A DNA stretch of 64,000 nucleotides from a virus: IMG/VR virus record IMGVR_UViG_3300035703_000045, positions 1-64,000 of that record. The stretch is one strand, 5' to 3'. The translations under genes were made by a program, and so were the position numbers. The notes below the pieces were generated by a model that worked only from the letters and a program-made list of their open reading frames with translations, was not told the DNA's origin and did no database searches. Numbering within the stretch: the stretch's first letter is position 1; every line of letters begins with the position of its first letter. Positions 6,544 through 25,718 of the stretch are shown piece after piece.

Positions 6544-8181
6544 TTATTTTACAATTCCGTGCTTTGCAATTATTTGATCAATTTTAGAACGAGTTGCTTC
6601 TGCATGCTCTTCTTTAAAACCTTTTGGTAATTCTGGAAGTTGAGCACCAGACTGACGAGCAAGACCGTAGGCTTTTGCGTACTCAATCTTTTTATCGTAC
6701 ACTAATTTGTCAATCCATTTAGAAATCTCTGGGTGTAGTTCCCCAGATTGGCTCATTCCTGCTATTTCATCACGTTTTGCTTTTTCAGCAGTATGCGCTT
6801 TCAATCTGTCACGAAGGTCTTCTCCTCGTGTGTCCTCATACTTAAACCTTGTTTTACCACCATGAGGATCTTTTACTACGGACATTCCACGTTTATTGAC
6901 ATACCGTTCTCGGGCAAGCACATGTTGATTTCGTGCTTGGCGTTCAATAGTGTGTTCAAACGGTACTTCTGTCCGTGCTCCAGCCAGTAACGCTTCACCA
7001 CGGGGAGACCTAGCAATAGGTGCTCCCGCTGGATTACCAAAGCGGTCAATATCTGGTGCAATGTCTGGGAATAGGGACTGTTGGATATGGTCCCCTTCAA
7101 CCGCTTTGATACGGTTTTGATATTCCGTTTCATGAGGAAGGTCAGTATGTCCCATTTCTTTTTGCAGTAGGTGGGTTGTCATACGATGTATGGCAGATGT
7201 GTCTCGTCTTGGGTTACGCTTACCCTCTAAATTAAGATCGTCCCTTAAAGTACCTGCTAAACGGGTTGCTTCAAGGATAAGGGAAGCAGGAACAACTTTT
7301 CCTGTTTGGTGTGAATAGTCAAAAGCCGTTTGATATGCCTGTGCCGCATCATCGCCACCAACACTTCTAAAAAAGTCAGGACTGTACATGGTATTAAAAT
7401 TACCTTTGCCCTGATACTTAGTACGATACCCCTCGGCAGATCCCTCGGTAATGGGGGTAGCGTTAAAGTGAATTGAGGGTGCTTCTAACTCACGGTAGCG
7501 ACCAGTATCAAAGTGTGCGTATCGGCTAAGGTTTTTACGACCAGATTTTCTAATGGCACTTCTGTCTGGGTTTGTAAATAAAACACCTATACCGCCGTCC
7601 ATAGATTTTGGTGCCTCTAGGTCTGGGGCATTCGCATCATTTTCCCAGATCCTTCTATGTACTTTATGTAATTCTAATTCTAATTGTGATTGGCTTAAGT
7701 CGTGTTGAAGAACGTGCGCTAATTCGTGAACCATGACGGCACGGCGGCTTTCCATAGGAAGGCTTGATTTGTAGGTGACCTCTCCACTTGTTATGTCGTG
7801 GGTGCCACCTACACCCTTAGTTAACGAACTAAAAAAGCCTTTTCCTGAATCAGATACAACAACTGACCCAGCACGTTGTAAATCAGTAACAGGCATATCT
7901 GACAGCCTTAACATGTTTACAACATCATTAGTTGGTTCTGAAAACGAACTACGTTTTCCACGACTCATATTTAAGTTATCGTGGAATAACTCACGAGACA
8001 TGGCCTTACCTAATTGATTTCTATACAAAGAGTTAAACCTATCTCCATATAGATAGTTTTCTTTGATAGTAGATATGCGGAAGTCTTTTTCTGCTTTATC
8101 TAAGTCAACGCCCGGAAGGGTCAATTGGTCAGGATTGTCACCGGGATTACGAGTAATTGAAAATTGTTTACTTAATTCCAT
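6544..8181 (-). CDS. Protein with zincin-like HExxH metallopeptidase motif
   Basis: AVMVHELAHVLQ with downstream TEGSAEGY; N-terminal LSKQF and NPDQLTL; internal QQSLF. Confidence 0.55.
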   Translation of the reverse strand: MELSKQFSITRNPGDNPDQLTLPGVDLDKAEKDFRISTIKENYLYGDRFNSLYRNQLGKAMSRELFHDNLNMSRGKRSSFSEPTNDVVNMLRLSDMPVTDLQRAGSVVVSDSGKGFFSSLTKGVGGTHDITSGEVTYKSSLPMESRRAVMVHELAHVLQHDLSQSQLELELHKVHRRIWENDANAPDLEAPKSMDGGIGVLFTNPDRSAIRKSGRKNLSRYAHFDTGRYRELEAPSIHFNATPITEGSAEGYRTKYQGKGNFNTMYSPDFFRSVGGDDAAQAYQTAFDYSHQTGKVVPASLILEATRLAGTLRDDLNLEGKRNPRRDTSAIHRMTTHLLQKEMGHTDLPHETEYQNRIKAVEGDHIQQSLFPDIAPDIDRFGNPAGAPIARSPRGEALLAGARTEVPFEHTIERQARNQHVLARERYVNKRGMSVVKDPHGGKTRFKYEDTRGEDLRDRLKAHTAEKAKRDEIAGMSQSGELHPEISKWIDKLVYDKKIEYAKAYGLARQSGAQLPELPKGFKEEHAEATRSKIDQIIAKHGIVK

Positions 8182-8218
8182 TACAATCCCTTACTAACCG
8201 AGGTACCTATAGGATACA

Positions 8219-8743
8219 TCATGAAAATGATGGATTATCCCCTAGACCTTCAAACAACCTTTGGTTCCAACCTTCTGGTCCTCTGAGGTCCATCTTTCCT
8301 TCCCTTGCATACACTAACTGCGCTCGTAAAGGATGGGAGAACCTAAAACTAGGTGCCATGAACTCATCGTCATTCTGAGGCTCATTTTGAAGGTTTAAAA
8401 GATGCTCAGGGGTTGCACGAGGACCATGAATGTTTTTGTCTACCATCCAATGACCCTCAGTCGGGGTAACCCTATAAACATACAAAGACTTTGGTAATCC
8501 ATTGCGACGTGGATAGTTAGCATGAGCCGCCCAAGAAATAGCGGTTCCAAGGTGACTAGTAGCATAGTTGAAGTTCTTACTCATATCCCATATAGGTTTT
8601 GAGGAACTTCTGTAGTCAATGTGTGTCAGATTTGGTTGATCAGTACCATGGTACAAATCACCAAACTGGTCTAGCGACACGGTGGTGTTGTTAGTGAGCC
8701 TTCCTTCTGGGGTAACTCCAAGGTAAAGTAGGGGATTTTTCAT
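8219..8743 (-). CDS. ADP-ribosyltransferase-like protein (Arr-like signature)
   Basis: LYHGT...FNYAT...AISWA...LYVYRVTPT...VDKN resembles the Arr pattern YHGT...YFT...VYxVEPTG...DPN. Confidence 0.55.
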   Translation of the reverse strand: MKNPLLYLGVTPEGRLTNNTTVSLDQFGDLYHGTDQPNLTHIDYRSSSKPIWDMSKNFNYATSHLGTAISWAAHANYPRRNGLPKSLYVYRVTPTEGHWMVDKNIHGPRATPEHLLNLQNEPQNDDEFMAPSFRFSHPLRAQLVYAREGKMDLRGPEGWNQRLFEGLGDNPSFS

Positions 8744-9280
8744 TTAGCGCACGTCCCCTAAGTTTGGAAGGTTATCAAAGGTTGTTGGAATAATTGGTCG
8801 CCTTCCCCGATAGTCGTACTCTCCGATAGTTCTAATGTCGTGTTTTGGATCAAAGCGGTCGTACACCAATGGTAGGTATATATCATGGCCTTGTTGCTCT
8901 AAATCAAAAGCCGCCGCAAAACGATGATGACCATTACCCATTTGGAAGTGACGAATACGGCTCATACTTGTTTGTTCTGGGGTCATATACGCCCGTGCTT
9001 TAGGACCGGGGGGCATAAGAACAATAGGTGTTTTAATTCCTTCTAACCGTACGCTATCAACCAGTCCAGAGCGATGTGCTTCTTCTAGTTTTGTTTTATG
9101 TAGTTTTGACGTAGCGTAGCGTTCAGGGGTAATTTCATCCCACTCAAGTTCATTTGAATCTAGGAAACCCCTAAGACGACCTAGTATTTCTGATGGTCGT
9201 GAAAATAACCTTAATTGGTCTGGGTTAGATCCGGGGTCACTACTTAATAGTTGGGGATTAATATGTTCAAATGCGCTCAT
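8744..9280 (-). CDS. ParB/Srx-like domain protein
   Basis: LVDSVRLEGIKTPIVL...GNGHHRFAAAFDL matches the ParB N-terminal GxxR motif. Confidence 0.7.
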   Translation of the reverse strand: MSAFEHINPQLLSSDPGSNPDQLRLFSRPSEILGRLRGFLDSNELEWDEITPERYATSKLHKTKLEEAHRSGLVDSVRLEGIKTPIVLMPPGPKARAYMTPEQTSMSRIRHFQMGNGHHRFAAAFDLEQQGHDIYLPLVYDRFDPKHDIRTIGEYDYRGRRPIIPTTFDNLPNLGDVR

Positions 9281-9286
9281 ACAGAC

Positions 9287-9730
9287 CTACTTAAATTGAG
9301 ACATATAGTCGTTGTACGTCTGGATATCCTCGTCCGTTACGCCTTCCTTACTCACCAGTAGTCGGGCAGGGAAGTTACCAACCACACGAGCACCACTGGC
9401 ATGGCGTGAGTCTGAAATTATGGCATGTCTTGATGAGGTGTCTCTTAGAAGGCGACCAGATGGTTCAACCACATGGATGAACCCTGAAGGAACTGTACTT
9501 TCATTTGCAGAGTCTTCAGGAGTCCATGCGTATTGTAGTGCCGTGATGGGGTGGGGTGTCATGTAAATACGATTGGGCTTATACCCTGTATTTGCCATAT
9601 CACGGGCTTTGATATGTTCTGGAGTACTGACCTTTAGAGCAGGAAGAACCGGCTCACCTACTGGGATACGAATTGGTGACCCGTGTAGCAAATATTTAAA
9701 CTGTGAACTAAGACTTCCTGATGCACTCAT
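9287..9730 (-). CDS. ADP-ribosyltransferase-like protein (Arr-like signature)
   Basis: LLHGS...PVGEPVLP...RIYMT...ALQYA...FIHVVEPSG. Confidence 0.6.
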   Translation of the reverse strand: MSASGSLSSQFKYLLHGSPIRIPVGEPVLPALKVSTPEHIKARDMANTGYKPNRIYMTPHPITALQYAWTPEDSANESTVPSGFIHVVEPSGRLLRDTSSRHAIISDSRHASGARVVGNFPARLLVSKEGVTDEDIQTYNDYMSQFK

Positions 9731-10209
9731 CCGTTATCTACTTTTTCCATACCAGCGTAACGAACTAGTCCATTTTTGACGGAATCTTTATGGAATATGT
9801 GAGAGATACTTCCGTAGTCTTCTACAGAGTTACGAAACTTAATTGCTGAAGTTGGGTTAACTAAAGAAACATCCGCTGGTTGTGTTTCCCACAATTCAGG
9901 TTGTTCACCACTTTTAAGTCCTAGTGGAGTATCACCTGATTGCATCATGTCGTCACCCCATAGTTCGGGGCGAACCATAGATACAGGAATGTCGTATTTA
10001 TGAATGTAATTTCTGCTAATTAACGACTTAGCCGCCGCTTCCGTACCAGCATAAATAAATCTGCCCTGTGGATTACTCTGAGTTAAGTGACCACTTTTTC
10101 TTATTTTCTGTGCATAGTCATCACTATCTTGCTCATGCACAGGTAGTGGACTATCAGAACTATGGAATACCCGAACGAACTGATCTCCAAGAGAGTTTTT
10201 AGCCGACAT
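9727..10209 (-). CDS. ADP-ribosyltransferase-like protein, paralog family A
   Basis: VFHSS...IYAGTEAAA...IHKYDIP...FRNSVEDYGSISH; clear paralog of the genes at 11602 and 12463. Confidence 0.55.
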   Translation of the reverse strand: MSAKNSLGDQFVRVFHSSDSPLPVHEQDSDDYAQKIRKSGHLTQSNPQGRFIYAGTEAAAKSLISRNYIHKYDIPVSMVRPELWGDDMMQSGDTPLGLKSGEQPELWETQPADVSLVNPTSAIKFRNSVEDYGSISHIFHKDSVKNGLVRYAGMEKVDNG

Positions 10210-10238
10210 CAGTCCCCCATAGACTGTAGTGCTACAAA

Positions 10239-10658
10239 TCAGTAGTTGTAGTCACTACGGTTGCGGATGGCCTCATTAAGGTCTTCTTTAGCCAGTGTGA
10301 CATTCTCACCCCGGTTCCGGGCGGCACGGTACCGATCAAGCATTGGCTGAGTATGGTACTCACTGATGTCATCATCATTTGTGACAGGAACCTTATCGCC
10401 ACCACCGGGGTAGTACGAGGGAAGCGAGTGCTTGCTGTGGAATTCTTCTACTGGGCCGTAGTCTGAAGGAGCAGGCATGTCATTCTCTTCGTACCAATCA
10501 TAATCCTCATGGAGACTCATTGCTGACTCGTTAAAGTAGTTAGCCAGAACACGAGAAAGACGTGGTAGGTCAGAACGACCAATATTCTTATTCATGTCGT
10601 GGGTTACCTTACCAGCGTGTAGGGGTCGGCCTCGGTGGTCGGATGCGGTCATATTCAA
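10239..10658 (-). CDS. Hypothetical protein
   Basis: AAGGAG RBS and TATTAT -10 upstream. Confidence 0.55.
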   Translation of the reverse strand: MNMTASDHRGRPLHAGKVTHDMNKNIGRSDLPRLSRVLANYFNESAMSLHEDYDWYEENDMPAPSDYGPVEEFHSKHSLPSYYPGGGDKVPVTNDDDISEYHTQPMLDRYRAARNRGENVTLAKEDLNEAIRNRSDYNY

Positions 10659-10700
10659 CTCCTTAATATTGAGTGCTCGGTCTATAATACACCAAATAAT

Positions 10701-11510
10701 TTAGTTGGGAAAATAACCTCTTGGATCAAGTTTAGCCCAAGTACCAGTTTCAAGATCTACAACATCATGAAAAGTCGTCTTGGGATTAACTGTATGACTA
10801 ACACCTAAAAATTGACCACTTAAATGATGTGGTTTATTTTGTCTGATACTAGATATTTCAGATTCTGGCATGTTAGTAATGAGTTCAGACAGACGTTCAG
10901 AAAGTTCAGGATTTGCGTTTCTTTTTCTATTGAATTCTCCAAAACGTGAATAAATATCGTCTCGTGCATGTAAAAATTTAAAATGTGAATCAGTATCGTG
11001 TGGATCCCAATGACTACTAAGAAGGTCTAGATTAAGTACCCGAGAATCTTTACTTGGTTCAAATACTGCCTTATCAATAGAACCATGCATTGCCTTATCA
11101 CCACTTGCGACTGTGCCAGAAAACGGTTTACGATGAGCGGCTTCATATACAAGGCTTCCATATGCGTCATCTTGTATGGCTTTTCGTAGTCCAACAGTCA
11201 TATTAGTGGGAAATACTGCCGCTTGAAGGATCGCTGATGGGTGAGAAAGCCCTTCTTCCCTCATATCAAAGCGTAGTGTGTCATCGGAGAATATATTTTT
11301 GTGTTTAGTTGGATCAATATTATATGATAATAGATCTTTTCCAATCATATGTGATATTTCTGATCCGGGCCTAATAAGGCCAGTACCCATATCAATACCA
11401 GCATTAAAATGAGACAACCTACGAATATGAAATTCAGGATCCCTTAAATTACCTAATCCTGATCTAAAACGAATATCAGATAAATTAGAGTTTCTAAGTA
11501 ATTCAGGCAT
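10701..11510 (-). CDS. Hypothetical protein carrying an HLSGQF tag
   Basis: 269-aa ORF with GGAGG RBS. Confidence 0.65.
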   Translation of the reverse strand: MPELLRNSNLSDIRFRSGLGNLRDPEFHIRRLSHFNAGIDMGTGLIRPGSEISHMIGKDLLSYNIDPTKHKNIFSDDTLRFDMREEGLSHPSAILQAAVFPTNMTVGLRKAIQDDAYGSLVYEAAHRKPFSGTVASGDKAMHGSIDKAVFEPSKDSRVLNLDLLSSHWDPHDTDSHFKFLHARDDIYSRFGEFNRKRNANPELSERLSELITNMPESEISSIRQNKPHHLSGQFLGVSHTVNPKTTFHDVVDLETGTWAKLDPRGYFPN

Positions 11511-11601
11511 ACAATCCTCCGAGTATATTCATTTTACTTTAAAATTGTGGTCATATACTACAAGATCTTTATTAGACGGCGATTTTTTGCACTTATACCT
11601 A

Positions 11602-12048
11602 TTAGTTGTCCCACAATGTGGGCTGGTACCTCCCGCCAGACATCACAGTTATAGCATTTGCAATGGCTTGACCGTCTTCTCCACGAAGTTCTTGGAATTG
11701 GGGACCAAGGTGCTTCACATGCTTACCTACAAAGTGGCTAGGGATAACATAGGAGGTAGAACCAACGTCCTCTACGGCGTTTGTGTACGGATAAATACGA
11801 TTAGTTTTGTGCTCAGGAACAATTTTTCCGCCCCTGTTGTATGGGTCTTCCCAATCCTTTACCCGTGAAGTAGGAGCAGTGTCGGGTATTTCATAGGCGT
11901 GTACCGTGGCGATGCCCCCAGACTCCTCCGCTTCATCTAAACGATCCTTAGCGGCCTTACGAGTACCGGCATGAAAGGTCTCTTGATCGTACTCATGGGG
12001 TGGTTTGGACTCAAATGTCCCGTGGTAGACGATCTTAGATGCGCTCAT
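11602..12048 (-). CDS. ADP-ribosyltransferase-like protein, paralog family A
   Basis: VYHGT...FHAGTRKAAKDR...VHAYEIP...YTNAVEDVGSTSYV; resembles polyvalent-protein ART domains. Confidence 0.6.
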   Translation of the reverse strand: MSASKIVYHGTFESKPPHEYDQETFHAGTRKAAKDRLDEAEESGGIATVHAYEIPDTAPTSRVKDWEDPYNRGGKIVPEHKTNRIYPYTNAVEDVGSTSYVIPSHFVGKHVKHLGPQFQELRGEDGQAIANAITVMSGGRYQPTLWDN

Positions 12049-12051
12049 GGC

Positions 12052-12435
12052 TCAATCCTTGAACTGGTCGCCTAGATGTGCTCGTTTTTCCATCTCATTC
12101 ATACGCCAAGAACGTAATTGACGCTCATAATCAGTTGCATGGCTGTGGCGAGGACCAAAAGCGGCAGGAGTGATCTCATGGTCTCCCCGTCCCAGTGCCA
12201 TTGGGCCAGAGCCACGGGGGTCATCATGCAACCAACCTTCGGAAAATCCTAGATTTATGAATGGTCTAGGTCGTTCAATGCCTTCAACACCACCCACAAC
12301 CAATCCAGAGTCAGTTGGAGTCTCAAACCGATGGTGAGGAGTCTCTAATCTAAAGGAGCCAGAACGGATAGGAAGACCACATTCAGCACATGATGGCTGT
12401 ACTAACGTCGGATCTTCAATGGGGAAATCAGTCAT
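12052..12435 (-). CDS. Hypothetical protein with CxxC motif and C-terminal HLGDQF
   Basis: CAECGLPI...WLH...H; leaderless-type promoter upstream. Confidence 0.6.
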   Translation of the reverse strand: MTDFPIEDPTLVQPSCAECGLPIRSGSFRLETPHHRFETPTDSGLVVGGVEGIERPRPFINLGFSEGWLHDDPRGSGPMALGRGDHEITPAAFGPRHSHATDYERQLRSWRMNEMEKRAHLGDQFKD

Positions 12436-12448
12436 GGCTCAATAATAC
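12433..12448 (-). promoter_or_regulatory. Leaderless promoter GTATTATTGAGCC-ATG, copy 1
   Basis: -10 TATTAT lies 6 nt before the ATG; identical 16-mer at 12895-12910. Confidence 0.55.
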
Positions 12449-12462
12449 ATTAGATTGTAAGG

Positions 12463-12897
12463 TCAGGATAAAGACATACCCATATACTTGATTTTATTAT
12501 CATTTATGTCTTTTTTATGCATAATGTAAGAAATACTGCCCTTATCTTCAACTTGGTTACGATACTGAAGTACTTCTCCGGGTTTAACGTCACGAGGTCT
12601 TACTGGAACTGTTTCCCACAAAGTGGGTCCACTTTTATCGGCAAGTTCCATAACTATGCGTGAGTCTCGTTCTGAGTCCGGGTCATGATCATCATCAGCC
12701 CAGATTTCAGGACGAAGCATACTTACAGGGATTCGGTAATGATGAATAACATCTCTACCTGACTCCATCATACGGTCAATTGCGGCTTGTTCAGTACCAG
12801 CAAAAACATGAGGATGACCATATCGTACATGGGGAGCATTGTTATCCATTGATGCGTGGTACACATCAATAAACTGTGGTCCGTCAGGTATTGGCAT
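12463..12897 (-). CDS. ADP-ribosyltransferase-like protein, paralog family A
   Basis: VYHAS...VFAGTEQAAIDR...IHHYRIP...YRNQVEDKGSISYI. Confidence 0.55.
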   Translation of the reverse strand: MPIPDGPQFIDVYHASMDNNAPHVRYGHPHVFAGTEQAAIDRMMESGRDVIHHYRIPVSMLRPEIWADDDHDPDSERDSRIVMELADKSGPTLWETVPVRPRDVKPGEVLQYRNQVEDKGSISYIMHKKDINDNKIKYMGMSLS

Positions 12898-12910
12898 GGC
12901 TCAATAATAC
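12895..12910 (-). promoter_or_regulatory. Leaderless promoter GTATTATTGAGCC-ATG, copy 2
   Basis: Identical to 12433-12448; heads the minus-strand array. Confidence 0.55.
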
Positions 12911-13021
12911 CAGAATAGGGCTACATTTGACTTTTGGCAGGTTACCCCCATTGCAGAATAGGGCTATTGCGTAGTTTTGGTGTTATTGGGTGGTTGGCCC
13001 TGCACCATTCGCCGTGAAGCC

Positions 13022-13717
13022 TGTGGATTAACCATGGGGGGTGTGGATATCCCTGTGGATAATGCCGTTATCCACAGCCCTATCTGTGGATAAGTGGTGT
13101 AGTTATCCACATCCCTGTGGGCAATTCTGTGGATAAGTGGCTGTCAAGGGGCAATTGTGTGACATTTGTCATGTGGATAACCCCATTTCCTGTGGATAAC
13201 TATGTGGATAACCCCGAAACCCTGTGTATAACCCATTTCAGCCTGTGGATAAAGATACCCCAAGGGGTACCGTACGCTGGGGAAATGCAAAGTGGGCTTG
13301 TTCATTGACTTTCTGCACGATTTCAGTGCATTTGCCCTGCTCAGAGGCACATTTCGTTGTCCACAGCGATCTGTGGAAATCGCCGTAGAGCCGTTTGGAG
13401 GCTCTGGAGGGGGTGCAGTGCCCCGAAACGCTGGAGGCTGTCAGAGGGCGAAATAGGGGGCAATGAGAGGAAAGTGTCATAACGTGGCATCAGCCCTAGA
13501 AATGGGGCTATGGGTGAGACAAATGTCACAAGTGGGGGGTAGGTGCAGGTATTTGCACTATGCAATCAATCCCCCATCAACTATTTGTACTCTGCAATAG
13601 TTGCACCCTACAAGTATCCCCGTCGCATCCCCCCTATGACCCCCTCTGATATCCCATTCATATATATGTCCAATTTCCGATCCAGTTATCCACAGGGGGC
13701 GCAGAAAGTTATCCACA
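13022..13717. promoter_or_regulatory. DnaA-box cluster (oriC-like or datA-like locus)
   Basis: Perfect TTATCCACA/TGTGGATAA starting at 13054, 13068, 13085, 13103, 13128, 13172, 13191, 13203, 13244, 13686, 13709; TGTGTATAA at 13223; TTGTCCACA at 13357; near-matches at 13022, 13042, 13116, 13372. Confidence 0.88.
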
Positions 13718-14018
13718 GACCCCGAATCGTCCCTACAGTGGCAGTGTGAGGTTCGCAGGGGTCACCATCGTCGGTGGCATCTCAGCATGCGTCCCTACCT
13801 CACGGTGATTCCCACCCTGCAAGGTCGCCACGCTCTCCGATGTCGCAAGTTTGACAGTGCGAGCACGACCGATGCCCCAGCGGTGCGCTGGCACGGATGG
13901 GAAGTCACCCCGTGATTACGAAATGCTCCGAACTGGGGGGATCAGAAGTTGGGCGGTCTAGCACCCGTCACCCCTGAATGCATAGCCAGTCCACCGGAGT
14001 ACGCATGCCAATTCCAAC

Positions 14019-14056
14019 GGTCTCAGGTCTCAGGTCTCACAAGGCGCAAGGTCTCA
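14019..14056 (+). repeat. GGTCTCA heptamer x4 (three tandem, one spaced)
   Basis: Copies at 14019, 14026, 14033 and 14050. Confidence 0.8.
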
Positions 14057-14119
14057 TCGTCCGTCCCCCATGTATGTGGGGGGCGATGGTCGCAGGGGTT
14101 CGCCCCGTAAAGCGACACC

Positions 14120-14175
14120 GTTGGGAGATGCCCCACTAGGGGGCGATTCATGAGGTGCGATCCCTCCTCCCAACA
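14120..14175 (+). ncRNA. tRNA-like mini-element 1 (acceptor stem plus T-arm)
   Basis: GTTGGGAG...GAGG-TGCGATC-CCTC-CTCCCAAC-A with an internal GCCCC/GGGGC hairpin. Confidence 0.4.
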
Positions 14176-14195
14176 CTGCTGACATCCCGTCAGCC

Positions 14196-14212
14196 TGCGT
14201 TCCCGTAACGCA
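14196..14212. repeat. Intergenic palindrome, copy 1 (TGCGTTCCCGTAACGCA, one mismatch)
   Basis: Matches consensus TGCGTTAC-S-GTAACGCA; lies just upstream of the GAAAGGAC RBS. Confidence 0.8.
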
Positions 14213-14231
14213 CCAACCCGAAAGGACAGCA

Positions 14232-14873
14232 ATGAACACCACCGACAACCGAGGGGTTCTCACCCCCATCCACACCGCCTGCGAGATCGCCGAGTCGGCT
14301 CTCGCTGATGCCAACGAGGTGCTCGCCTGCCTGCCAGTGATCATGGATGCCAGCGAGGGTGTCAGCAATCGTGACATCGCCTACTGGGGCGTGAGCGAGG
14401 GCATGGTTCGCCGGTACAAGGTGCTCGCCACCATCATCGCCTTGGGCGACGACGAGGGTGCCCAGTGCGATCTCTTCACGGCTCGCAAGGTCGTGAACGC
14501 CACGTTCAAGGTCAAGGGCATCACCACCGAGATGATGAACGAGGTCATCGCTGAGAGCGACACCGTGTCGCAGGCGGTCGCTGGTCTTCAGGCTCTCGCC
14601 TTGGCTCCGGTCATGACCGAGGTGGACGAGGACGAGACGGACGGCGACGGCGACGGCGACGAGGATCAGACCCCCGACCCCAAGGACGACCTCGCCAAGA
14701 AGGTCACCAACTGGCTCACGGCTGGTCAGGGTTCGCTTCGCAAGGTCGTGGAGGCGCAGGGCAACGGGTTCGTCCTGACCGATGAGCAGGTCGTCGCTCT
14801 CACCACCCTGACCGACCTCGTCGCTCAGATCAACGCCAACGCCAACGCTCAGAAGACGGTCGTCGCCGTCTGA
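14232..14873 (+). CDS. Hypothetical protein, first gene of the plus-strand region
   Basis: GAAAGGAC RBS, strong GC3 bias, acidic DGDGD linker. Confidence 0.8.
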   Translation: MNTTDNRGVLTPIHTACEIAESALADANEVLACLPVIMDASEGVSNRDIAYWGVSEGMVRRYKVLATIIALGDDEGAQCDLFTARKVVNATFKVKGITTEMMNEVIAESDTVSQAVAGLQALALAPVMTEVDEDETDGDGDGDEDQTPDPKDDLAKKVTNWLTAGQGSLRKVVEAQGNGFVLTDEQVVALTTLTDLVAQINANANAQKTVVAV

Positions 14874-14880
14874 TGACACC

Positions 14881-14948
14881 GCCAGTAGCAGTGGGGATGC
14901 CACGGGGCATCAGCAATCCCACGGGGGGTTCAACTCCCCCCACTGGCA
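14881..14948 (+). ncRNA. tRNA-like mini-element 2 (acceptor stem plus T-arm, no D-arm)
   Basis: GCCAGT...GTGGG-GATGCC-ACGG-GGCATC...CCCAC-G-GGGGG-TTCAACT-CCCCC-C-ACTGGC-A. Confidence 0.5.
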
Positions 14949-14998
14949 CTGCTGGACGAGTGCACGGGCAACTGTGCGCTCGTCTAGTATCAACACCG

Positions 14999-15015
14999 TG
15001 CGTTACCGTAACGCA
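14999..15015. repeat. Intergenic palindrome, copy 2
   Basis: TGCGTTACCGTAACGCA upstream of the RBS of the gene at 15035. Confidence 0.85.
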
Positions 15016-15034
15016 CCCGAATGAAAGGACAGCC

Positions 15035-15874
15035 ATGAACCAGCCCAGCGAGAAGCAGATCGGATTCATCCGGTCTCTCGTCAACGAGCGTCGTCAGACG
15101 CTCACCGACCTCAAGCCCGAGTGGCTCACCACTCCGACCACGACCCGTGAGGCGAGCGACATCATCTCCCGACTGATGGATCTGCCCCGTGACCCGAAGG
15201 CTCCGACCGCCGAAGATGCCGACCTCGCCACCGACATGGCAATCCTCAAGAACGGACTGGGCGAATTGTCGGGGCGTGACTTCCACTTCGCCTCGTCGCT
15301 CGTCAAGCAGTACGAAGAGCGTGGCACCCTGTCCGACCGCCAACGGGCGTTCATCCCCAAGTTGTTCAAGGCGATGGACGGTGCTGACAAGCCCGTGCCC
15401 ATGGGCATCCACCGTGCCAGCGACGGCACCATCGTCCTCGTCTACCTGACCAAGAACGGTCGTCAGGCTGGCAAGGTGCTGGACGAGGGCACCTTCATCT
15501 ACGCCAGCGGTGTCATCGCCCGTTTCAACCTGTCCGACGAGACGGTGATCTCGCAGGCGCAGGCTCAGGAGTTCGGGCGCACCCACGGCTTCTGCGTGGC
15601 ATGTGCCAAGCCCCTCACCGACGACCGCTCGCTCGCATCGGGCTACGGCGCAGTGTGCGCTGGCAAGTACGGGTGGCACTACTGCACCCGTGAAGAGGCG
15701 GTGGCGATCTTGGGTCGCCCCGTCGCCTGCCAGCACCAGTGGGAGTTGGTCAAGACGGACACCAACTACTACAACCCCCAATTGGGGACGGGGTCGTGGA
15801 CGGAGCACTACGAGTGCGCCAACTGCGACGAGTGCAAGACGGTCAACATCGTCAACAACCGCTCGGGCGACTGA
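15035..15874 (+). CDS. DUF6011-like zinc-binding protein
   Basis: GFCVACAKPLTDDRSLASGYGAVCA; N-terminal SEKQIGFIRSL; start moved to the ATG after GAAAGGAC. Confidence 0.7.
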   Translation: MNQPSEKQIGFIRSLVNERRQTLTDLKPEWLTTPTTTREASDIISRLMDLPRDPKAPTAEDADLATDMAILKNGLGELSGRDFHFASSLVKQYEERGTLSDRQRAFIPKLFKAMDGADKPVPMGIHRASDGTIVLVYLTKNGRQAGKVLDEGTFIYASGVIARFNLSDETVISQAQAQEFGRTHGFCVACAKPLTDDRSLASGYGAVCAGKYGWHYCTREEAVAILGRPVACQHQWELVKTDTNYYNPQLGTGSWTEHYECANCDECKTVNIVNNRSGD

Positions 15875-15935
15875 TCAGGGGGTGGTATCGGGCAATCTGA
15901 TATCCATCCCATATCCCATCCGACTGCTGGGGGGT

Positions 15936-15952
15936 TGCGTTACCGTAACGCA
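15936..15952. repeat. Intergenic palindrome, copy 3
   Basis: TGCGTTACCGTAACGCA flanked by a G-run and a C-run. Confidence 0.85.
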
Positions 15953-16002: not shown

Positions 16003-17568
16003 ATGTCGTTCATTGACGACTTCCTCAACGACCTCCAGCCCACCGCTGGACGACCCTCGCCCCAACCTGTGGGCGTGTCCAGCCTCACCGTCCCGACCCT
16101 GCACCTGCCCCTGATGGACTACCAGCAGGAGTCGGTGCAGTTCGCATTGACCCGTCGCAGTGCCTACCTCGCCCTTGACATGGGCTTGGGCAAGACGGCA
16201 GTCGCCATCGCCATCGCCACTGCTGTTGCCCAGCAGGAGCACCGTCAGGTGCTCATCGTGGTGCCCCCGTCGCTCCGTACCAACTGGGTGCGAGAGTTCG
16301 GGAAGTTCAGCCCCGACCTCAGCATCCACGTCTTTGACAAGTCGGCTCCCACGCCGACCATCAGGGTGCCTCGCATGGTCAACGGCTCCCCGTTGACGGT
16401 GGACGGCAAGAAGGTCATGGACGAGGTTCCCAACCCGAACCCTCCGACCCTCCCGACCAGCAACGTGCTCATCGTGGGCGACTCCACCGTGGAGGGCTGG
16501 GCGCACTGGTTGTCCACCTCTCCCCGTCCGGTCGGTGCGGTCATCGTTGATGAGGCGCATCGGATGAAGAATCCGAAGGCGTTGCGAACCAAGGCTCTCG
16601 CCCAACTCATCAAGTCCATGCCCAGCGACGGCGTGAGGATCATGATGTCGGGCACCCCTGCGCCCAACGGTCGTGCGTCGGAACTCGCCACCGCACTGGA
16701 ACTGGTGGACGGCTGGAGCACGGTCTCCAAGGGCACGTTCTGGCACTACTACTGCCCCCCTGCCAAGTTCGGTCGTGAGCATCTGCCCGAGCGTGTGCAG
16801 GAGTTGGGCGAGAAGTGCCGGAGCACGTTCATGCTCCGTCGCCTCCGTGGTGAGGTGCTGACCCTCCCGAACAAGGGACGCAGTGCCATCGCCGTGGAGG
16901 GCAAGGGCACCGCCGTGCGTAAGTACATCAGCGCAGAGGAAGACCTCATTGAATTCCTCAGCGGTGAGGGTCGCTCCACTGAGGGTGCCGGTCGTGCAGA
17001 AGCACTGGTGCGTCTCACCACTCTCCGTGCCCTCGCTGGTCAGGCGAAGGTGGACGGTGCGGTCACCCTCATCAAGGAGATGCTGGAGGACGACCCCTCG
17101 GGCATCCTCGTCATCGCAGAGCATCAGGCGGTCATGGACGCACTGGAGATGGCGTTCATCGGCAAGGCTGTCAGCATCCGTGGTGGCATGACCGACACGC
17201 AGAAGAGCGATGCCGTGGACATGTTCAACGGTGGTCACGCTCAGGTGCTCATCGGTCAGATCACCAGTGCAGGCGTGGGCTTCACCCTGCACGGTGGTGG
17301 TCGCAACCATCGGGTCGTCGTCGTGCAGTTGCCGTGGACTCCTGCTGAACTCCAGCAGGCAGAGGATCGCCTCCACCGCATCGGGCAGACGCACGATGTG
17401 GAGGTGACCATTGTGCTCACGCACATTGATGGCAAGTGGAGCATTGATGAGCGACTGTGGGGTCTCTTGGAGCAGAAGGCGTTCAGTGCCACCGCCATGA
17501 TCAACGGCGAGGGAGAGTTCCTCACGGACAGCGAAATCCGTGAGGGTCTGCTGGACACCTACCGCTGA
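16003..17568 (+). CDS. SNF2-family (SF2) helicase/translocase
   Basis: DMGLGKT, VVPPSLRTNW, DEAH, SGTP, QAEDRLHRIGQ. Confidence 0.92.
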   Translation: MSFIDDFLNDLQPTAGRPSPQPVGVSSLTVPTLHLPLMDYQQESVQFALTRRSAYLALDMGLGKTAVAIAIATAVAQQEHRQVLIVVPPSLRTNWVREFGKFSPDLSIHVFDKSAPTPTIRVPRMVNGSPLTVDGKKVMDEVPNPNPPTLPTSNVLIVGDSTVEGWAHWLSTSPRPVGAVIVDEAHRMKNPKALRTKALAQLIKSMPSDGVRIMMSGTPAPNGRASELATALELVDGWSTVSKGTFWHYYCPPAKFGREHLPERVQELGEKCRSTFMLRRLRGEVLTLPNKGRSAIAVEGKGTAVRKYISAEEDLIEFLSGEGRSTEGAGRAEALVRLTTLRALAGQAKVDGAVTLIKEMLEDDPSGILVIAEHQAVMDALEMAFIGKAVSIRGGMTDTQKSDAVDMFNGGHAQVLIGQITSAGVGFTLHGGGRNHRVVVVQLPWTPAELQQAEDRLHRIGQTHDVEVTIVLTHIDGKWSIDERLWGLLEQKAFSATAMINGEGEFLTDSEIREGLLDTYR

Positions 17569-17582
17569 CCCCACCCCGACCA

Positions 17583-17615
17583 CGGTGGGGTGCGTTACGG
17601 TAACGCACCCCACCG
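17583..17615. repeat. Intergenic palindrome, copy 4 (33-bp inverted repeat)
   Basis: CGGTGGGG-TGCGTTACGGTAACGCA-CCCCACCG. Confidence 0.9.
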
Positions 17616-17707
17616 ATATCCATATCAAAGGTTGCAATATCAGATTGCGACCCCTAGAATCCCAGTTACAAGTTCAGACCAACCCAACCACAAGAAAGGC
17701 AATCAAC

Positions 17708-18934
17708 ATGGCAACCATCCAAGAACTCGCTCTCGCCAAGCGACAGAACAAGCAGGCTCTCGCCACATCGGGAACGATGGAGGGCATGCGGTGCGACATC
17801 ATGTCGGACTCGCTCGTCCCCGACGGACAGCCCAACCAGCGCAAGGTCGCTGTCAAGTGGGAGGACGGCGAGGAGGGCTTCTACCTGCCCCGTCAGTTGG
17901 AGGTCGTGGAGCCGAAGACCCACGCCTTCATCCCGACCGCACAGCCCGTCCTCGTTGGACAGGCACAGCCCCAGCCCGTGGCGTTGTCCAGTGCCCCTGC
18001 CGTCGTGATGGGTGCGCTTCCCAGCCACCCCGACCACGACTTCTACGACGAGTTCCGTCCGTCGCCCGTCGTCAAGGAGATGCACATCGCCCGTCAGGCG
18101 ATGCTGGGGAGCGACCTCAACTCCACCGAGTACCTCATGGAGTGGTGGAACAAGCGTGACGAGTCGGGCTTCAGCAAGCCCCTCGCCCTCGTCGGTGACA
18201 CGCAGGCTGGCAAGACCATGGAGGTGGAGCGTCTCGCATTCGCCATCGCAGAGCGCATGGGTCTCAGCAAGCCCGTCCCCGTCTTCACGGTGATGGGTTC
18301 CAACGGCGTGACCGATCACGATCTGTTCGGCACCACTCGCACTGACCCCATGACGGGTCAGCCCGTGTTCATGCGTGGCACCGTGCAGATGGCTTGCGAG
18401 GCTCCCGTCGCCATCCTCTACTTGGATGAGGTCAACGCCATGGGTGGCAACGTCACCAGTGCCCTGCACCCCATCATTGACGGACGACACAAGTTCACCA
18501 ACTTGCGTCTCCCCGTCCGTACCGAGGCTGGCTACAGCCCCATGACCATCAACGTCTCCAAGGGTCTGTGGGTCATCGCCTCTTGGAACCCTGCCTACGC
18601 TGGCATGAACAAGACCAACGAGGCGTTCACCGCACGGTTCAAGGTGCTGGAGTGGAACTACGACTCCGCACTGGAAGACCACATCATCGGCTCGCCTGCG
18701 CTCCGCATGCTGGCTGACCAGTTGCGGAACCTGCGCTCCAAGCGCATCCTCAACACGCCGGTCGGTATCACCGACCTCAAGGACATCAAGTGGGAGGCGC
18801 ACAAGTTCGGTGCCAAGGTCGCACTGGATTCCTTCTTGGGCAAGTTCATCAGCGAGGCTGAGAAGATGGCGGTCTCGTCGGCAATGACCGACGGCTCCAT
18901 CTATCAAACCCTCCAGTTGGAGGTGAACTCCTGA
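17708..18934 (+). CDS. MoxR/CbbQ-like AAA+ ATPase
   Basis: Walker A GDTQAGKT, Walker B LYLDEVN, ASWNPAYAG...NEAFTARF; start at the ATG after GAAAGG. Confidence 0.85.
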   Translation: MATIQELALAKRQNKQALATSGTMEGMRCDIMSDSLVPDGQPNQRKVAVKWEDGEEGFYLPRQLEVVEPKTHAFIPTAQPVLVGQAQPQPVALSSAPAVVMGALPSHPDHDFYDEFRPSPVVKEMHIARQAMLGSDLNSTEYLMEWWNKRDESGFSKPLALVGDTQAGKTMEVERLAFAIAERMGLSKPVPVFTVMGSNGVTDHDLFGTTRTDPMTGQPVFMRGTVQMACEAPVAILYLDEVNAMGGNVTSALHPIIDGRHKFTNLRLPVRTEAGYSPMTINVSKGLWVIASWNPAYAGMNKTNEAFTARFKVLEWNYDSALEDHIIGSPALRMLADQLRNLRSKRILNTPVGITDLKDIKWEAHKFGAKVALDSFLGKFISEAEKMAVSSAMTDGSIYQTLQLEVNS

Positions 18935-18939
18935 CAGCC

Positions 18940-18974
18940 TGAGGTGGGTGCGTTACGGTAACGCACCCACCTCA
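18940..18974. repeat. Intergenic palindrome, copy 5 (35-bp inverted repeat)
   Basis: TGAGGTGGG-TGCGTTACGGTAACGCA-CCCACCTCA. Confidence 0.9.
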
Positions 18975-19074
18975 TACCCCACCCATACCGATATCAACTG
19001 CAAGCAGAACCATCCACTTGCATTTGAACTTCATCACACCCACCCCGTACACTCATCAACAGAGAGGACACATC

Positions 19075-21156
19075 ATGACGAAGAAGCAGTTGACCCCCGA
19101 AGAGATGATGGAGCGCAACGTGCGTCGGCAGATGCAGAGGCACGGTGCCAAGATCCGTGAGCGCATCAAGGCTGACACCGAACTGCACGAAGAGCAGAAG
19201 CGTCAAGAGGCGCAGAAACTCATCGCACAGATGGAGGCGAGTGCCAACCGAGGCACGGTGGAGCACAGCGACTACGACAAGGCGCAGTGGCTGTGCGACA
19301 GCATCAAGCAGATCACCACGGTCGTGGCTCGCTCGTTTGGTCAAGACCAGCCCATCGTGCACAAGTACAGCAACATGATTGCTGACCGCATGTTGATGGC
19401 GTTCACTGACCTGAAGGTGGTGACCATCGGCATCAAGCCGTCGCTCGTTCAATTCTCCAGCGACGAAGAAGTGCGGCGCACCACTGCTGTGATCAAGGGT
19501 GCCACCTACCATGAGTTCGCCCACTGCATGTGGACGAAGCATCTCATCAAGGACTACTTCCCGATTGACGATAACGCCCACAAGAACTTCAAGGCGTGGA
19601 ACCTCTTGGAGGACGGACGCATTGAGGCTCTGCTCATCGTGAAGTCTCCGATCATCAAGAAGTACCTTCTTCCGATGATGTGGGACATCGTCGTGAACGT
19701 CGGTGACGAGAGCACTGATGAGTACGACAGGGTGTACCGAATCGCACGGGCAGTACCTTTCTTGCTTGTTCGCACCTACATTCCAAAGGGCATCCAGCGT
19801 CAGGCTGTCATGAACGTGTGGAAGGTACTGGATCTCTCAAACAGAGACACCCCAGCAACTCGTCAGAATGTCAAGAACATCATCAGCGAGATGCTGTCAG
19901 TGAGCCGTGGGTACAACGCCTGCACGGACATGAATGACCAAATCCCGTTCATCGTTCGGTTCAGCGAGTTGCTCAACGAGTGGGGACAACTGTTCGGTCG
20001 GGTCTTCACCAATGACAGTGCTGGTGACCCCAGTGGTCGTACTGGTGAATCATCGTCGGTGGAATCGGTGGAGTCCCCGTCCGAGTGGGACGAGTCCGAG
20101 TGGGACAACAGCACACCTGCACCCAGCACCTCCGATGGTGACAGCAAGCCGGAGAACTCAGCCAAGGGTGAGTCGCACAAGCCATCTGATATGGATATGG
20201 AATCGGACGATGACTCCGACTTCAGCGTCAAGCCCAGCGCAGACGACAAGGACGACAAGCCCAGCGACTCCGACGACAAGGAGAACGATGGCTCCAAGGA
20301 CGATGAGCAATCGCAGGGGAAGTCATCCGACCACGGTGACGAGTCCAACAACAATCCGCACGAAGAGTTGAACAAGGCTGTCAACGAAGCCGTGAGTGAC
20401 TACGAGTTGTCGGCGGTCATGAAGCACTGGGGTGACACCCTCCGCACTGGGTTGCCCTCCTACACGCAACCTCTCCCCACCGATAGCAAAGTGACCGATG
20501 ACGGAGAGATGGTTCGCATCGGCATGATCAATGCACTGGACACGGTGGTCATGACCGCCAGCCCGTCATGGAAGTACCGCATGGAGACTGGTGCCGTGCT
20601 GGATGTGGATGCCTTCACCAACCGTGAGGTGGGTGACGATGCCTACTGGATGGACAAGGACGACAGTGGTGAGCGTGGTCACGACCTCGCCATCAGCATC
20701 CTGCTGGACTGCTCAGGCTCCATGATGGGCACATACTCCGCACTGGGGTCGTGTGCATACGGAATCCATAGCGCATCACAGTCGCTTGGTATCCCGTGCA
20801 CGACGAGCATCTTCGGGACGCACCAGTACATCCTGTGGGGCGAGGACGAGACCCCGACTCCAGTGATCATGCCCGACCTTGGTGGTACTCAGGTTCGGGA
20901 ATGCTTGGAGTCGCTCCCGACTCAACGAGCAGGCAAGTCACGGCAGATCGTGTTCATCCTCACCGATGGTGATTGGGAGTACGACATCCCCACGCTCCTG
21001 CCCTACATGGATGAGGACGTGCACATCGTTCTGATCGGATTGGGGATGCCCTTGGCAAAGTTGACTCAGAAGTCCCCCAGCCGTGCGATCACCATCAAGT
21101 CGGTGATTGATCTGCCGAAGATGGTTGAGCAGGTCATCGGAGACTTCTTCCGGTGA
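19075..21156 (+). CDS. VWA-domain protein with N-terminal HExxH region (CobT-like architecture, MoxR partner)
   Basis: YHEFAH...WNLLEDGRIE; acidic linker; MIDAS motif LLDCSGSM...GGT...ILTDG. Confidence 0.85.
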   Translation: MTKKQLTPEEMMERNVRRQMQRHGAKIRERIKADTELHEEQKRQEAQKLIAQMEASANRGTVEHSDYDKAQWLCDSIKQITTVVARSFGQDQPIVHKYSNMIADRMLMAFTDLKVVTIGIKPSLVQFSSDEEVRRTTAVIKGATYHEFAHCMWTKHLIKDYFPIDDNAHKNFKAWNLLEDGRIEALLIVKSPIIKKYLLPMMWDIVVNVGDESTDEYDRVYRIARAVPFLLVRTYIPKGIQRQAVMNVWKVLDLSNRDTPATRQNVKNIISEMLSVSRGYNACTDMNDQIPFIVRFSELLNEWGQLFGRVFTNDSAGDPSGRTGESSSVESVESPSEWDESEWDNSTPAPSTSDGDSKPENSAKGESHKPSDMDMESDDDSDFSVKPSADDKDDKPSDSDDKENDGSKDDEQSQGKSSDHGDESNNNPHEELNKAVNEAVSDYELSAVMKHWGDTLRTGLPSYTQPLPTDSKVTDDGEMVRIGMINALDTVVMTASPSWKYRMETGAVLDVDAFTNREVGDDAYWMDKDDSGERGHDLAISILLDCSGSMMGTYSALGSCAYGIHSASQSLGIPCTTSIFGTHQYILWGEDETPTPVIMPDLGGTQVRECLESLPTQRAGKSRQIVFILTDGDWEYDIPTLLPYMDEDVHIVLIGLGMPLAKLTQKSPSRAITIKSVIDLPKMVEQVIGDFFR

Positions 21157-22778: not shown

Positions 22779-22795
22779 GAACTAGGAGAAGCAAC

Positions 22796-24232: not shown

Positions 24233-24479
24233 TACCGATCTCATATACCACAACGCACGGATAACGCTGTTCGTTCGTATCCCCGATGGGGTGTATGTGC
24301 CCGAAGAGTTCCAGTTTAGTGAGAGTGACATCCAGCAAGCCGAGCAGGAATTCGGTATCCACTCAACATCCATGTGCCGTGCAGTTGAGGTCAGCGACCA
24401 CATCATCAATGTCATTCAAGGTATGGGGGTTGATGTGGAGGGATGGGCTGTCTCCGATGTGTACGAGGTGCAAAAGTGA
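24213..24479 (+). CDS. Hypothetical protein
   Basis: Packed ORF. Confidence 0.5.
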   Translation: MTKTPSDTDLIYHNARITLFVRIPDGVYVPEEFQFSESDIQQAEQEFGIHSTSMCRAVEVSDHIINVIQGMGVDVEGWAVSDVYEVQK

Positions 24480-24853
24480 CCGAGTGCCCGTGGTGTTCAA
24501 CAGAACTATCAGATCAGTTTGATACCTACCATATGGGTGGGGAGTGCATCGGTAACTCGTACAACCAAACCCCTCACCCGTTCAGTCGGGAGTGGTGTGA
24601 CCCTGAATGGCGAAGCAAATGGTTGATTGATCTAGATGATGATCAACTGGAGTCACTCAGTGATGGGCAGTTGAGAGACATTCTTCCTGCCTTTGAACTA
24701 GTTGGTCTTCACCGTGTGTTCGGTCAACACGCAGTAGCGGTCAGACAAATGATTGAGTCAATCATCAATTTCAAAATGGTGAATACCATGACATTCAATG
24801 ACTTCAAGAATTACAAACAAGGTCTAGATCTACTCAGTAGTAGGAGTAAGTGA
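24476..24853 (+). CDS. Hypothetical protein
   Basis: GTGA overlap; CPWC. Confidence 0.5.
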   Translation: MTECPWCSTELSDQFDTYHMGGECIGNSYNQTPHPFSREWCDPEWRSKWLIDLDDDQLESLSDGQLRDILPAFELVGLHRVFGQHAVAVRQMIESIINFKMVNTMTFNDFKNYKQGLDLLSSRSK

Positions 24854-25203
24854 TGTCAGACATCAGCAAGTCCCAGTATGAAATTTCTCACGATGAGAAG
24901 ACCATGCGTAGGTTGAAGCATCTAGAAGAGCAGAAGCAAAAGCGGGCTTTCATTAATGAGATGGAGAACATTAAGAAGATGGAGAAACGTGATTATTTAT
25001 CCATGCCGTTCTCCAAGCCGAACGAGCCACGACTTCCTGACTTCCCCATGCAGAACAAGCAGTTTCGTAGTTGTCTCGCACTTGTACTTGAGGCAATTGT
25101 GGCAGAGGTTGACAAGCACGGGTTGGATTCAGTCCATCCGTCTCTTATCCTTGCTTATGGTCTTTCATACAACACACTCAACAACAACGGAAAGAATTAC
25201 TGA
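24850..25203 (+). CDS. Hypothetical protein
   Basis: AGGAG RBS. Confidence 0.55.
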   Translation: MMSDISKSQYEISHDEKTMRRLKHLEEQKQKRAFINEMENIKKMEKRDYLSMPFSKPNEPRLPDFPMQNKQFRSCLALVLEAIVAEVDKHGLDSVHPSLILAYGLSYNTLNNNGKNY

Positions 25204-25379
25204 TCATGCAGATGTTTGACATCATGGACAACCAAACATTCGCTGGACTCCTGATCTACATCGTGTTCTGCGGTTGCAAGTTCGCAGGATGGGCTGTGGA
25301 ACAGTTGAAGTACGAAGAAGAAGAGATCTCGGCGGAAACCAACCGCCGGTGAAATACAAACACACGGGAGATATACCAA

Positions 25380-25718
25380 ATGGATATCAAGACAATCATC
25401 AACCTCTTGACTGCGGGTCAGATAGAAGCCACGAAGGCGGTGGAACTGATCGCTATTGAATGCGACACAGACCCAGCCGTACTCATCACGGCACTCAAGA
25501 AGATCCACACGACCAAGACCTCAACTCGTTTCACCCCACAGGATATTGCTAGTGTCATCTCCATGTGGCAGAACGGCGCAACAAAGGGTCAGATCGCCAA
25601 GCAACTCGGGCGTGACCGCATCAGCATCAACAACCTGATCGCTCGTCTTCGCAAGAAGGGCATTGACCTTCCCGTGCGCCCCATCCGCACAGCCGACAAT
25701 CAGTTGAGCCTGTTCTGA
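25380..25718 (+). CDS. Helix-turn-helix DNA-binding protein ending in QLSLF
   Basis: GATKGQIAKQLGRDRISINNLIARLRKKG; the C-terminal QLSLF equals the beta-clamp-binding consensus. Confidence 0.75.
   Translation: MDIKTIINLLTAGQIEATKAVELIAIECDTDPAVLITALKKIHTTKTSTRFTPQDIASVISMWQNGATKGQIAKQLGRDRISINNLIARLRKKGIDLPVRPIRTADNQLSLF

Follow-up and report, generated by a model that had tools for sequence, protein, structure and literature searches.

Several proteins of the uncultivated phage in IMG/VR record IMGVR_UViG_3300035703_000045 carry short peptides that resemble the motifs by which bacterial proteins bind the beta sliding clamp, DnaN. Do these peptides serve to dock their bearers on the clamp of the host? 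The stretch examined here, called the window, is the first 64 kb of this 93,044-bp record (CheckV completeness 99%). The original prediction held that several putative effectors may dock on host DnaN and that, together with an array of DnaA boxes, this would attack or hijack host replication. Judged motif by motif, that proposal is partly supported, and about half of it stands. The best explanation, to which we assign a probability of about one-half from sequence comparison, is that a portable tag for the host clamp is carried by three proteins of the window: a helix-turn-helix (HTH) protein, a ParB/Srx-like protein, and an HExxH zincin-like protein.

All of the peptides on which the proposal was built exist, since each was reproduced by translation at the open reading frame (ORF) named. 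They lie as follows, with proteins designated by the first coordinate of their ORF or, for the HTH protein, as P0001:

25701–25718, plus strand: QLSLF and the stop codon, the last five residues of the 112-residue HTH protein P0001 (motif letters 25701–25715).
9203–9235, minus strand: PGSNPDQLRLF, in the N-terminal leader of the ParB/Srx-like protein 8744.
8107–8166, minus strand: a leader ending in QLTLPGV, at the N-terminus of the HExxH protein 6544.
7069–7083, minus strand: QQSLF, internal to the HExxH protein 6544.
8252–8263, minus strand: QRLF, near the C-terminus of 8219 in the context N-QRLF-E.
9889–9903, minus strand: QPELW, in the ART-fold paralog 9727.
11611–11625, minus strand: QPTLW, two residues before the C-terminus of 11602 (QPTLW-D-N).
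12616–12630, minus strand: GPTLW, in the ART-fold paralog 12463.

Chance expectation was taken from per-protein shuffles of the 140 called phage proteins. By this measure, QL.LF occurs 2 times against 0.20 expected (P = 0.016) and Q..[LM]F 9 times against 3.8 (P = 0.015). Terminal copies of Q..[LM]F, at most 35 residues from the N-terminus or at most 12 from the C-terminus, number 5 against 0.91 expected (P = 0.004). The Trp motifs of the ART-fold paralogs are inherited copies and hence do not represent independent events. The published clamp consensus is Q-phi-x-[LM]-[FL] together with a hexapeptide form, and Mycobacterium tuberculosis PolI carries QLSLLDD (doi 10.64898/2026.09.19.751633). 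The consensus, Q-phi-x-[LM]-[FL] or Q-phi-x-[LM]-x-[FL], is fitted by QLSLF of the HTH protein and QLRLF of the ParB-like protein. Both forms are failed by QLTLPGV (G at position 6), QQSLF (Q at position 2), QRLF (spacing), and the QPELW, QPTLW, and GPTLW motifs (P at position 2, W at position 5); for the last three, QPDLF of MuC and QLPLWG of ImuB are partial precedents.

The three proteins with credible tags are these:

25380–25718, plus strand: P0001, a 112-residue HTH protein with sub-threshold HTH_23 and HTH_29 Pfam matches and phrog_323.
8744–9280, minus strand: a 178-residue ParB/Srx-like protein with a G-H-H-R motif and the leader PG-x-NP-D-QLRLF.
6544–8181, minus strand: a 545-residue HExxH zincin-like protein with the leader K-Q-F...NPG-D-NP-D-QLTLPGV and weak Peptidase_M78 and DUF6782 matches.

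The tail of the HTH protein is an exact QL[SD]LF consensus match. P0001 has a faint likeness to GcrA and to sigma region 4 and is otherwise a generic small HTH protein. It has five relatives in the databases (55–96% identity) and an orthologue (42%) in the 99-kb sister phage G001 (IMGVR_UViG_3300044825_000698), which has 79 of the 140 called proteins in common with the phage studied here. All six are tagged at the C-terminus: the ends found among them are QLTLF, QLTIF-S, QLKLF (after a three-residue insertion), and QGRLF-DV, with QLKLPGF in G001. The Q-x-x-L-F tip is retained in the five database relatives while the linker that precedes it varies in sequence and, through insertions and deletions, in length. 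In the window, that linker is nine residues long, and the C-terminal position is flexible and accessible. No ribosome-binding-site-like constraint from the next gene was found in the DNA beneath the tail. Judged from these sequences, the pattern reads as the classic signature of a short linear motif. For the proposal that this end is a clamp-type motif, the consensus match, free end, and conservation all hold, and we infer the binding to the clamp itself.

In the ParB-like protein, the tag is N-terminal. Within the family, no block is better conserved than the leader G-x-N-P-D-QLRL-[FL]-x-R-P-S-E, which stays unchanged down to 38% identity (alignment A2). An 81% identical relative, P0007, has a 30-residue insertion just upstream of the leader that bears a second canonical QLSLF, eight more viral-contig relatives have QLQMF at the same place, and a remote ParB-like protein in locus L009 begins with QMKLF. 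The leader can accommodate the 30-residue insertion of P0007, as expected of a flexible segment. Altogether, the tag is kept as QLRL[FL], QLQMF, or QMKLF in about 12 relatives. The ParB/Srx assignment draws on the G-H-H-R motif, invariant in A2, and on a weak phrog_21912 match (E = 0.008); no Pfam or NCBIfam match was obtained.

The HExxH protein carries a related N-terminal form. Of 9 family sequences, 7 have Q-x-x-[LIF]-P-G-hydrophobic and the other 2 have near variants (alignment A3). The forms include QLSLPG[VI], QLILPGF, and QPQIPGF, and a more distant member in locus L011 has QYVLPL. In an AlphaFold2 (AF2) model, the leader is predicted to be disordered, with a predicted local distance difference test score (pLDDT) below 50 for residues 1–23. 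The zincin assignment comes from an invariant H-E-L-A-H, Peptidase_M78 and DUF6782 matches below their cut-offs, and one relative bearing PF20573; Foldseek gave weak zincin rows only, with E of at least 0.08. As originally described, 8744 and 6544 share a leader (NPDQLRLF and NPDQLTLP), and both versions are conserved in relatives. Moreover, the K-Q-F...NPG-D-NP-[DE]-QL leader sits on the HExxH protein in the window and on ParB-like proteins in six other phages. Thus, the leader is a module that moves between unrelated domains.

Both leader-bearing genes belong to a minus-strand block at 6128–12897. Because G001 lacks homologues across 5856–13000 and has a different set of small genes in that place, we regard this block as a hypervariable cassette. 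It begins at a 1.3-kb divergent intergenic region and lies directly upstream of structural genes on the same strand, across the record ends. In sister phages, cassette proteins that are unrelated to one another have canonical tags at their very ends. A second HExxH protein terminates in QMKLF and another protein in QLKLDL-EGM, a family of about 230 residues ends in QQSLF-GEDQ after a basic linker, and paralogs in G001 bear D-QLKMF and D-QMRLF. Members of the ART-fold family have QLKLF, QLSLF-GENE, or QPRLF at the C-terminus and QMSLF or QLTLF at the N-terminus. Among 147 representatives of this family, the last 25 residues contain 2 copies of QL.LF against 0.004 expected, and the first 30 residues contain 2 copies of Q[LM].[LM]F against 0.027. 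These sequences suggest that terminal tags were gained repeatedly within the ART-fold family.

The tags are usually accompanied by a second motif, [LM]-[GS]-x-Q-F (hereafter Q-F), and by a C-terminal Q-P-x-L-P-G-[LF]-E variant. Almost all cassette proteins have this second motif, as [HL]-[LM]-[GS]-x-Q-F, at the borders of domains to either side of gene boundaries. It is found at the N-termini of 9727, 12463, 9287, and 6544 and at the C-termini of 12052, 11602, and 10701. It occurs as well in many ORFs of G001 and of loci L009, L011, and L013–L020, and in the 11602 subfamily it ends 30 members. Possible identities are a polyvalent-protein linker remnant, a zincin site cut between Q and F, and a second docking motif. 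A few residues past it, unrelated cassette proteins end in Q/H-P-x-[LI]-[PT]-G-[LF]-E-x or Q-P-E-L-G-x, as at 1689–2390, 2390–3253, and 5951–6691 of L009 (plus strand) and 73084–74399 of G001 (minus strand). The spacing of these tails, Q1-L4-hydrophobic7, is nearer to a PIP box than to a bacterial clamp tag.

The remaining peptides are not supported as part of the tag system. Most reside in ART-like proteins of the cassette:

9727–10209, minus strand: a 160-residue ART-fold paralog with QPELW within a folded loop (AF2 mean pLDDT 92).
12463–12897, minus strand: a 144-residue ART-fold paralog, 39–41% identical to 9727, with GPTLW aligned with QPELW.
11602–12048, minus strand: a 148-residue ART-fold paralog without the loop motif, with a lineage-specific C-terminal QPTLW-D-N (alignment A5).
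8219–8743, minus strand: a 174-residue ART-like protein of a second type with a Y-H-G-T start and, from its translation, QRLF near the C-terminus.

A profile of 9727, 12463, and 11602 retrieves 148 representatives, and AF2 on a 122-sequence alignment gives a model at pLDDT 92. The top Foldseek matches of this model are RES, MbcT, ParT, exotoxin A, and diphtheria toxin (probability 0.93–0.98), modest matches in that E is about 5e-3 and TM about 0.5. H16, Y72, and E130 are nearly invariant and form an H-Y-E-type set (alignment A6). The predicted structure thus supports the ART label at the level of the fold. Burial was read solely from AF2 pLDDT and secondary structure. The Trp motif proves to be one version of a family-wide x-[PE]-x-L-[FW]-E-x-[VI]-P element in which F outnumbers W by 44 to 22 and Q is found in under half of the members. 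In the model, QPELW forms a short helix (residues 106–109) within a block at pLDDT ~93. Further copies upstream, RPELW and RPEIW, occur in 9727 and 12463; of this R-P-E-[LI]-W, only the aromatic character is invariant, other members having Y or F. The proposal that QPELW and GPTLW are clamp motifs is therefore rejected, given a conserved L-[FW]-E core, an unconserved Q, and a confidently folded position. The C-terminal QPTLW of 11602 was dropped as well: neither 30 subfamily members nor a 79% identical relative in L013 have it.

Two further peptides lack support. Internal QQSLF of the HExxH protein is invariant in the family as Q-x-S-[LM]-[FL]-P, and the model places it in an extended segment, residues 361–400, at pLDDT 83–92. 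With this high confidence, it was rejected as a free tag, and it is most likely packed against the fold. QRLF of 8219 is one residue short of the Q-x-x-L-F spacing; relatives of 8219 were found neither in phage genomes nor in viral contigs. Conservation in homologues was found for the HTH tail, the ParB-like leader, and the HExxH leader and was lacking for QPTLW of 11602, and the same tail and leaders are flexible where QQSLF and the ART-fold loop are folded. Neither the folded L[FW]E loop nor QQSLF, probably packed, should be counted as a clamp tag; both are look-alikes.

Other look-alikes are present in the phage group. The cassette holds two ART-like families within 8219–12897 (minus strand), the H-Y-E-type trio 9727/11602/12463 and the shorter Y-H-G-T-type 8219 and 9287, and relatives of the latter type in G001 and L009 contain a structural R-L-F-G-T-V-Y strand that mimics a clamp motif. 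At 53975–54418 (minus strand), a 147-residue protein lies between DnaB and the DnaC-like loader, in synteny with Streptomyces phage LuckySocke gp121 upstream of DnaB. Its N-terminal QVTMF was rejected: although retained as QASMF in G001, it is lost in the syntenic Streptomyces-phage homologue, which has V-Y-I-V-F, and it is probably a beta-strand. Q-Q-L-L-F of the phage PolA belongs to what we take to be a family-typical F-N-P-x-S...Q-Q-L-L-F motif.

Which clamp could the tags address? Profiles for the three DnaN domains, PCNA_N, and gp45_C detected no phage clamp in the 99%-complete genome, and atlas look-ups of two uncharacterised phage proteins of ~420 residues as clamp candidates returned nothing. 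Therefore, if the tags are clamp tags, their partner must be the host ring, and it is in this sense that we infer DnaN as the partner. Two WhiB genes in the phage, together with PolA best matches in Streptomyces phages and a replication-module protein that matches Streptomyces phages only, point to an actinobacterial host.

The original prediction also invoked DnaA boxes, and these are present:

13022–13717, both orientations: an array of 11 perfect TTATCCACA boxes (at 13054–13717) and 5 one-mismatch copies.

The window has no perfect box elsewhere, and the array occupies the intergenic region 12900–14230 at the head of the cassette. G001 has a counterpart in 6 perfect boxes at 76975–77137, in the equivalent divergent region heading its own cassette. 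The array may act as a sink for DnaA, as a set of DnaA-controlled promoters, or as an origin that uses host DnaA. It lends plausibility to the idea that this phage group engages host replication proteins, but it shows no link to the tags.

Under the explanation that we favor, flexible extensions at the N- or C-terminus would bear the tag, either as Q-aliphatic-x-[LM]-[FL] or in an Hda-like form, Q-L-x-L-P-G-hydrophobic, and would thereby tether several phage proteins to the host DnaN ring on DNA. Its credible carriers in the window are the HTH protein with C-terminal QLSLF, the ParB/Srx-like protein with N-terminal QLRLF, and the HExxH protein with N-terminal QLTLPGV. What these proteins would do at the clamp can be proposed in outline. 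The HTH protein would most likely be MuC-like, a DNA-bound factor touching the loaded clamp, and this contact may couple transcription activation, or the organization of the origin or replisome, to replication. For the enzyme-like proteins, the tag may concentrate them on clamp-bearing, replicating, or nicked DNA. On this view, the carriers may be effectors, and some attack on host replication is conceivable.

Several observations weigh against such a tag. The phage has its own replication set, comprising a family-A DNA polymerase (PolA), DnaB helicase, DnaC-like loader, DnaG-type primase, SSB, RecA, a replication initiator, and two SNF2 helicases; it is not evident why a phage replicating with its own PolA, DnaB, and primase would require the clamp of its host. 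Conservation in the ParB-like family runs ~8 residues past the motif (..x-R-P-[SH]-E-I-L), longer than in a typical clamp tag, and from sequence this extended block could reflect another partner or a structural cap. The Q-x-x-L-P-G-hydrophobic form of the HExxH protein, with G at position 6, lies outside both published consensus forms. Finally, neither the accompanying Q-F motif nor Q-P-x-L-P-G-[LF]-E has a known role in clamp binding. In the main alternative, which we consider unlikely, the terminal module, Q-F followed by Q-x-x-L-(F or P-G-hydrophobic), would be a phage-internal signal and its likeness to clamp motifs coincidental. The signal could be a capsid-targeting or encapsidation peptide or else a polyvalent-protein linker or processing remnant cut by the HExxH peptidase. 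Q-F does fall at domain borders (the C-terminus of 12052 and the N-termini of 9727, 12463, and 9287, for example) and at the ends of the 30 ART-fold members, a zincin preferring a hydrophobic P1' residue could cut between Q and F, and the cassette is adjacent to structural genes. Its zincin peptidase, ART, and ParB/Srx domains are, furthermore, those of polyvalent proteins, which are predicted to be packaged and processed (PMC5512222). However, the HTH protein is encoded in another operon and lacks Q-F, yet has a tag of the same type, and tags at the extreme C-terminus, with 0–4 residues after them, cannot be cleavage sites. The tags also fit the clamp consensus far better than they fit a generic hydrophobic signal, and where they vary (L or M at position 4, F or L at the end), they keep exactly to it.

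If DnaN is indeed bound, the purpose could instead be inhibition, with abundant early proteins filling both clamp clefts, displacing host Pol III and repair enzymes, and stopping host replication, the enzyme domains being secondary. Over-expressed MuC is lethal through its clamp motifs (PMC12867686), each phage has several tagged proteins, and a DnaA-box array able to titrate DnaA adjoins the cassette. Yet the tags sit on conserved enzyme-like or DNA-binding domains and not on minimal peptides, which suggests delivery rather than mere blocking and makes inhibition, in our estimate, quite unlikely. Chance or features of the fold, with no common partner, do explain some of the listed motifs: the L[FW]E loop has a folded position (pLDDT ~93), QQSLF is packed, QVTMF of the 147-residue protein is replaced in the Streptomyces-phage homologue, and Q-Q-L-L-F of PolA is presumably family-typical. 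As an account of all the motifs, this is very unlikely, since it leaves unexplained the terminal enrichment, the tip kept through insertions and deletions, the extra QLSLF insertion in P0007, and the presence of one leader on unrelated domains. A portable host-clamp tag remains our preferred explanation.

It is useful to compare this putative tag with known systems, since clamp motifs on phage and plasmid proteins are of an already known kind. TrfA of plasmid RK2 carries the clamp motif QLSLF. Clamp motifs have also been described in insertion sequence transposases (PMC4549789). Like these transposases and plasmid initiators, the proteins described here include a mobile-element DNA-binding protein with a QLSLF-type tag that may address host DnaN; unlike them, they belong to other families, and in those systems no shared leader hops between enzyme families. 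The HExxH leader invites comparison with Hda, a proteobacterial protein. Hda has an N-terminal clamp-binding motif, QLSLPL (PMC5397184). The HExxH tag is likewise N-terminal, disordered, and few residues from the start, and QLSLPG of its relatives matches 5 of the 6 residues of QLSLPL. In contrast, position 6 of the HExxH tag holds G, with a hydrophobic residue next, where Hda has L, and the tag precedes a zincin-like and not an AAA+ domain.

For the HTH protein, the closest parallel is MuC of phage Mu. This small HTH activator, whose ends carry QHDLF and QPDLF, binds the E. coli clamp and drives late transcription, and motifs of this kind (Q-x-[DE]-L-F or QPDLF) are family-wide (PMC12867686). 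P0001 resembles MuC/Mor as a small phage HTH protein with a terminal, family-conserved motif in a phage without its own clamp, and differs in having one tag instead of two, an actinobacterial host, and no detectable Mor/C membership. PF08765, the Mor family, is absent from the Pfam matches of P0001 at E ≤ 0.1, and a six-frame search of the genome found none at E ≤ 10. Among actinobacterial clients, mycobacterial DnaQ has Q[YL]ALF (PMC11348249) and ImuB has QLPLWG (PMC10421592). With PolI, they show QL-x-L-[LF] to be acceptable to actinobacterial DnaN; trailing acidic residues are frequent among them, and Trp is possible at the last position. These clients are cellular replication and repair enzymes, whereas the carriers here are phage proteins, and the ImuB-type precedent does not rescue the Trp motifs of the ART-fold paralogs, since those are folded. 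The cassette also shares its toolkit of zincin MPTase, ART, and ParB/Srx domains in a hypervariable setting with the polyvalent proteins of phages and conjugative elements; unlike theirs, its domains are separate small genes. The paper on polyvalent proteins makes no mention of clamp motifs (PMC5512222). Three elements are new here: a shared leader or tail hops from one enzyme family to another, the setting is an actinophage, and QL-x-L-F gives way at orthologous positions to an Hda-like P-G variant.

The wider setting is that of a myovirus-like phage, to judge from baseplate J, gpD hub, and P2-I-like tail genes in the window. No close cultured phage was found by megablast, or by tblastn against cultured phages, with the region, P0001, 8219, and 8744. 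Single-sequence viral scans, two metagenome scans, and a genome-contig scan for prophage copies gave no matches. Elsewhere in the window, 14001–20000 forms an island of GC 0.58–0.63 in a genome of GC 0.48. Its gene order is kept in G001, and it encodes a DUF6011 protein, an SNF2 helicase, an AAA_5 ATPase, and a 712-residue uncharacterised protein. A 482-residue protein at 32838–34286 (minus strand), 72% identical in G001, matches phrog_887 (queuine tRNA-ribosyltransferase-like, E = 1.6e-41) and hints at a DNA modification of the 7-deazaguanine type. At 2827–4023 (minus strand) lies a 398-residue protein whose N-terminus is signal-like and which has very long tracts rich in Thr, Pro, and Ser; its counterpart in G001 adjoins another large secreted-looking protein.

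A broader picture can be drawn, and we hold it to be rather doubtful. Freshwater-type actinophages may use a “clamp-address label” of ~30 residues, made up of Q-F and QL-x-L-F or QL-x-L-P-G, that is swapped among ART-fold, ParB/Srx-like, zincin, and HTH proteins and delivers an enzyme battery to host clamps; with the DnaA boxes, this would amount to a coordinated capture of host replication. More generally, if the tags bind DnaN, they would provide the first functional handle on a hypervariable cassette whose proteins otherwise resist annotation, among them the ART-fold battery and the ParB/Srx-like and zincin-like proteins. The use of the host clamp known from Mu MuC would then extend to actinophages and to enzymes. 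In that case, the clamp cleft, the site of griselimycin, would be a hub exploited by phages of Actinobacteria.

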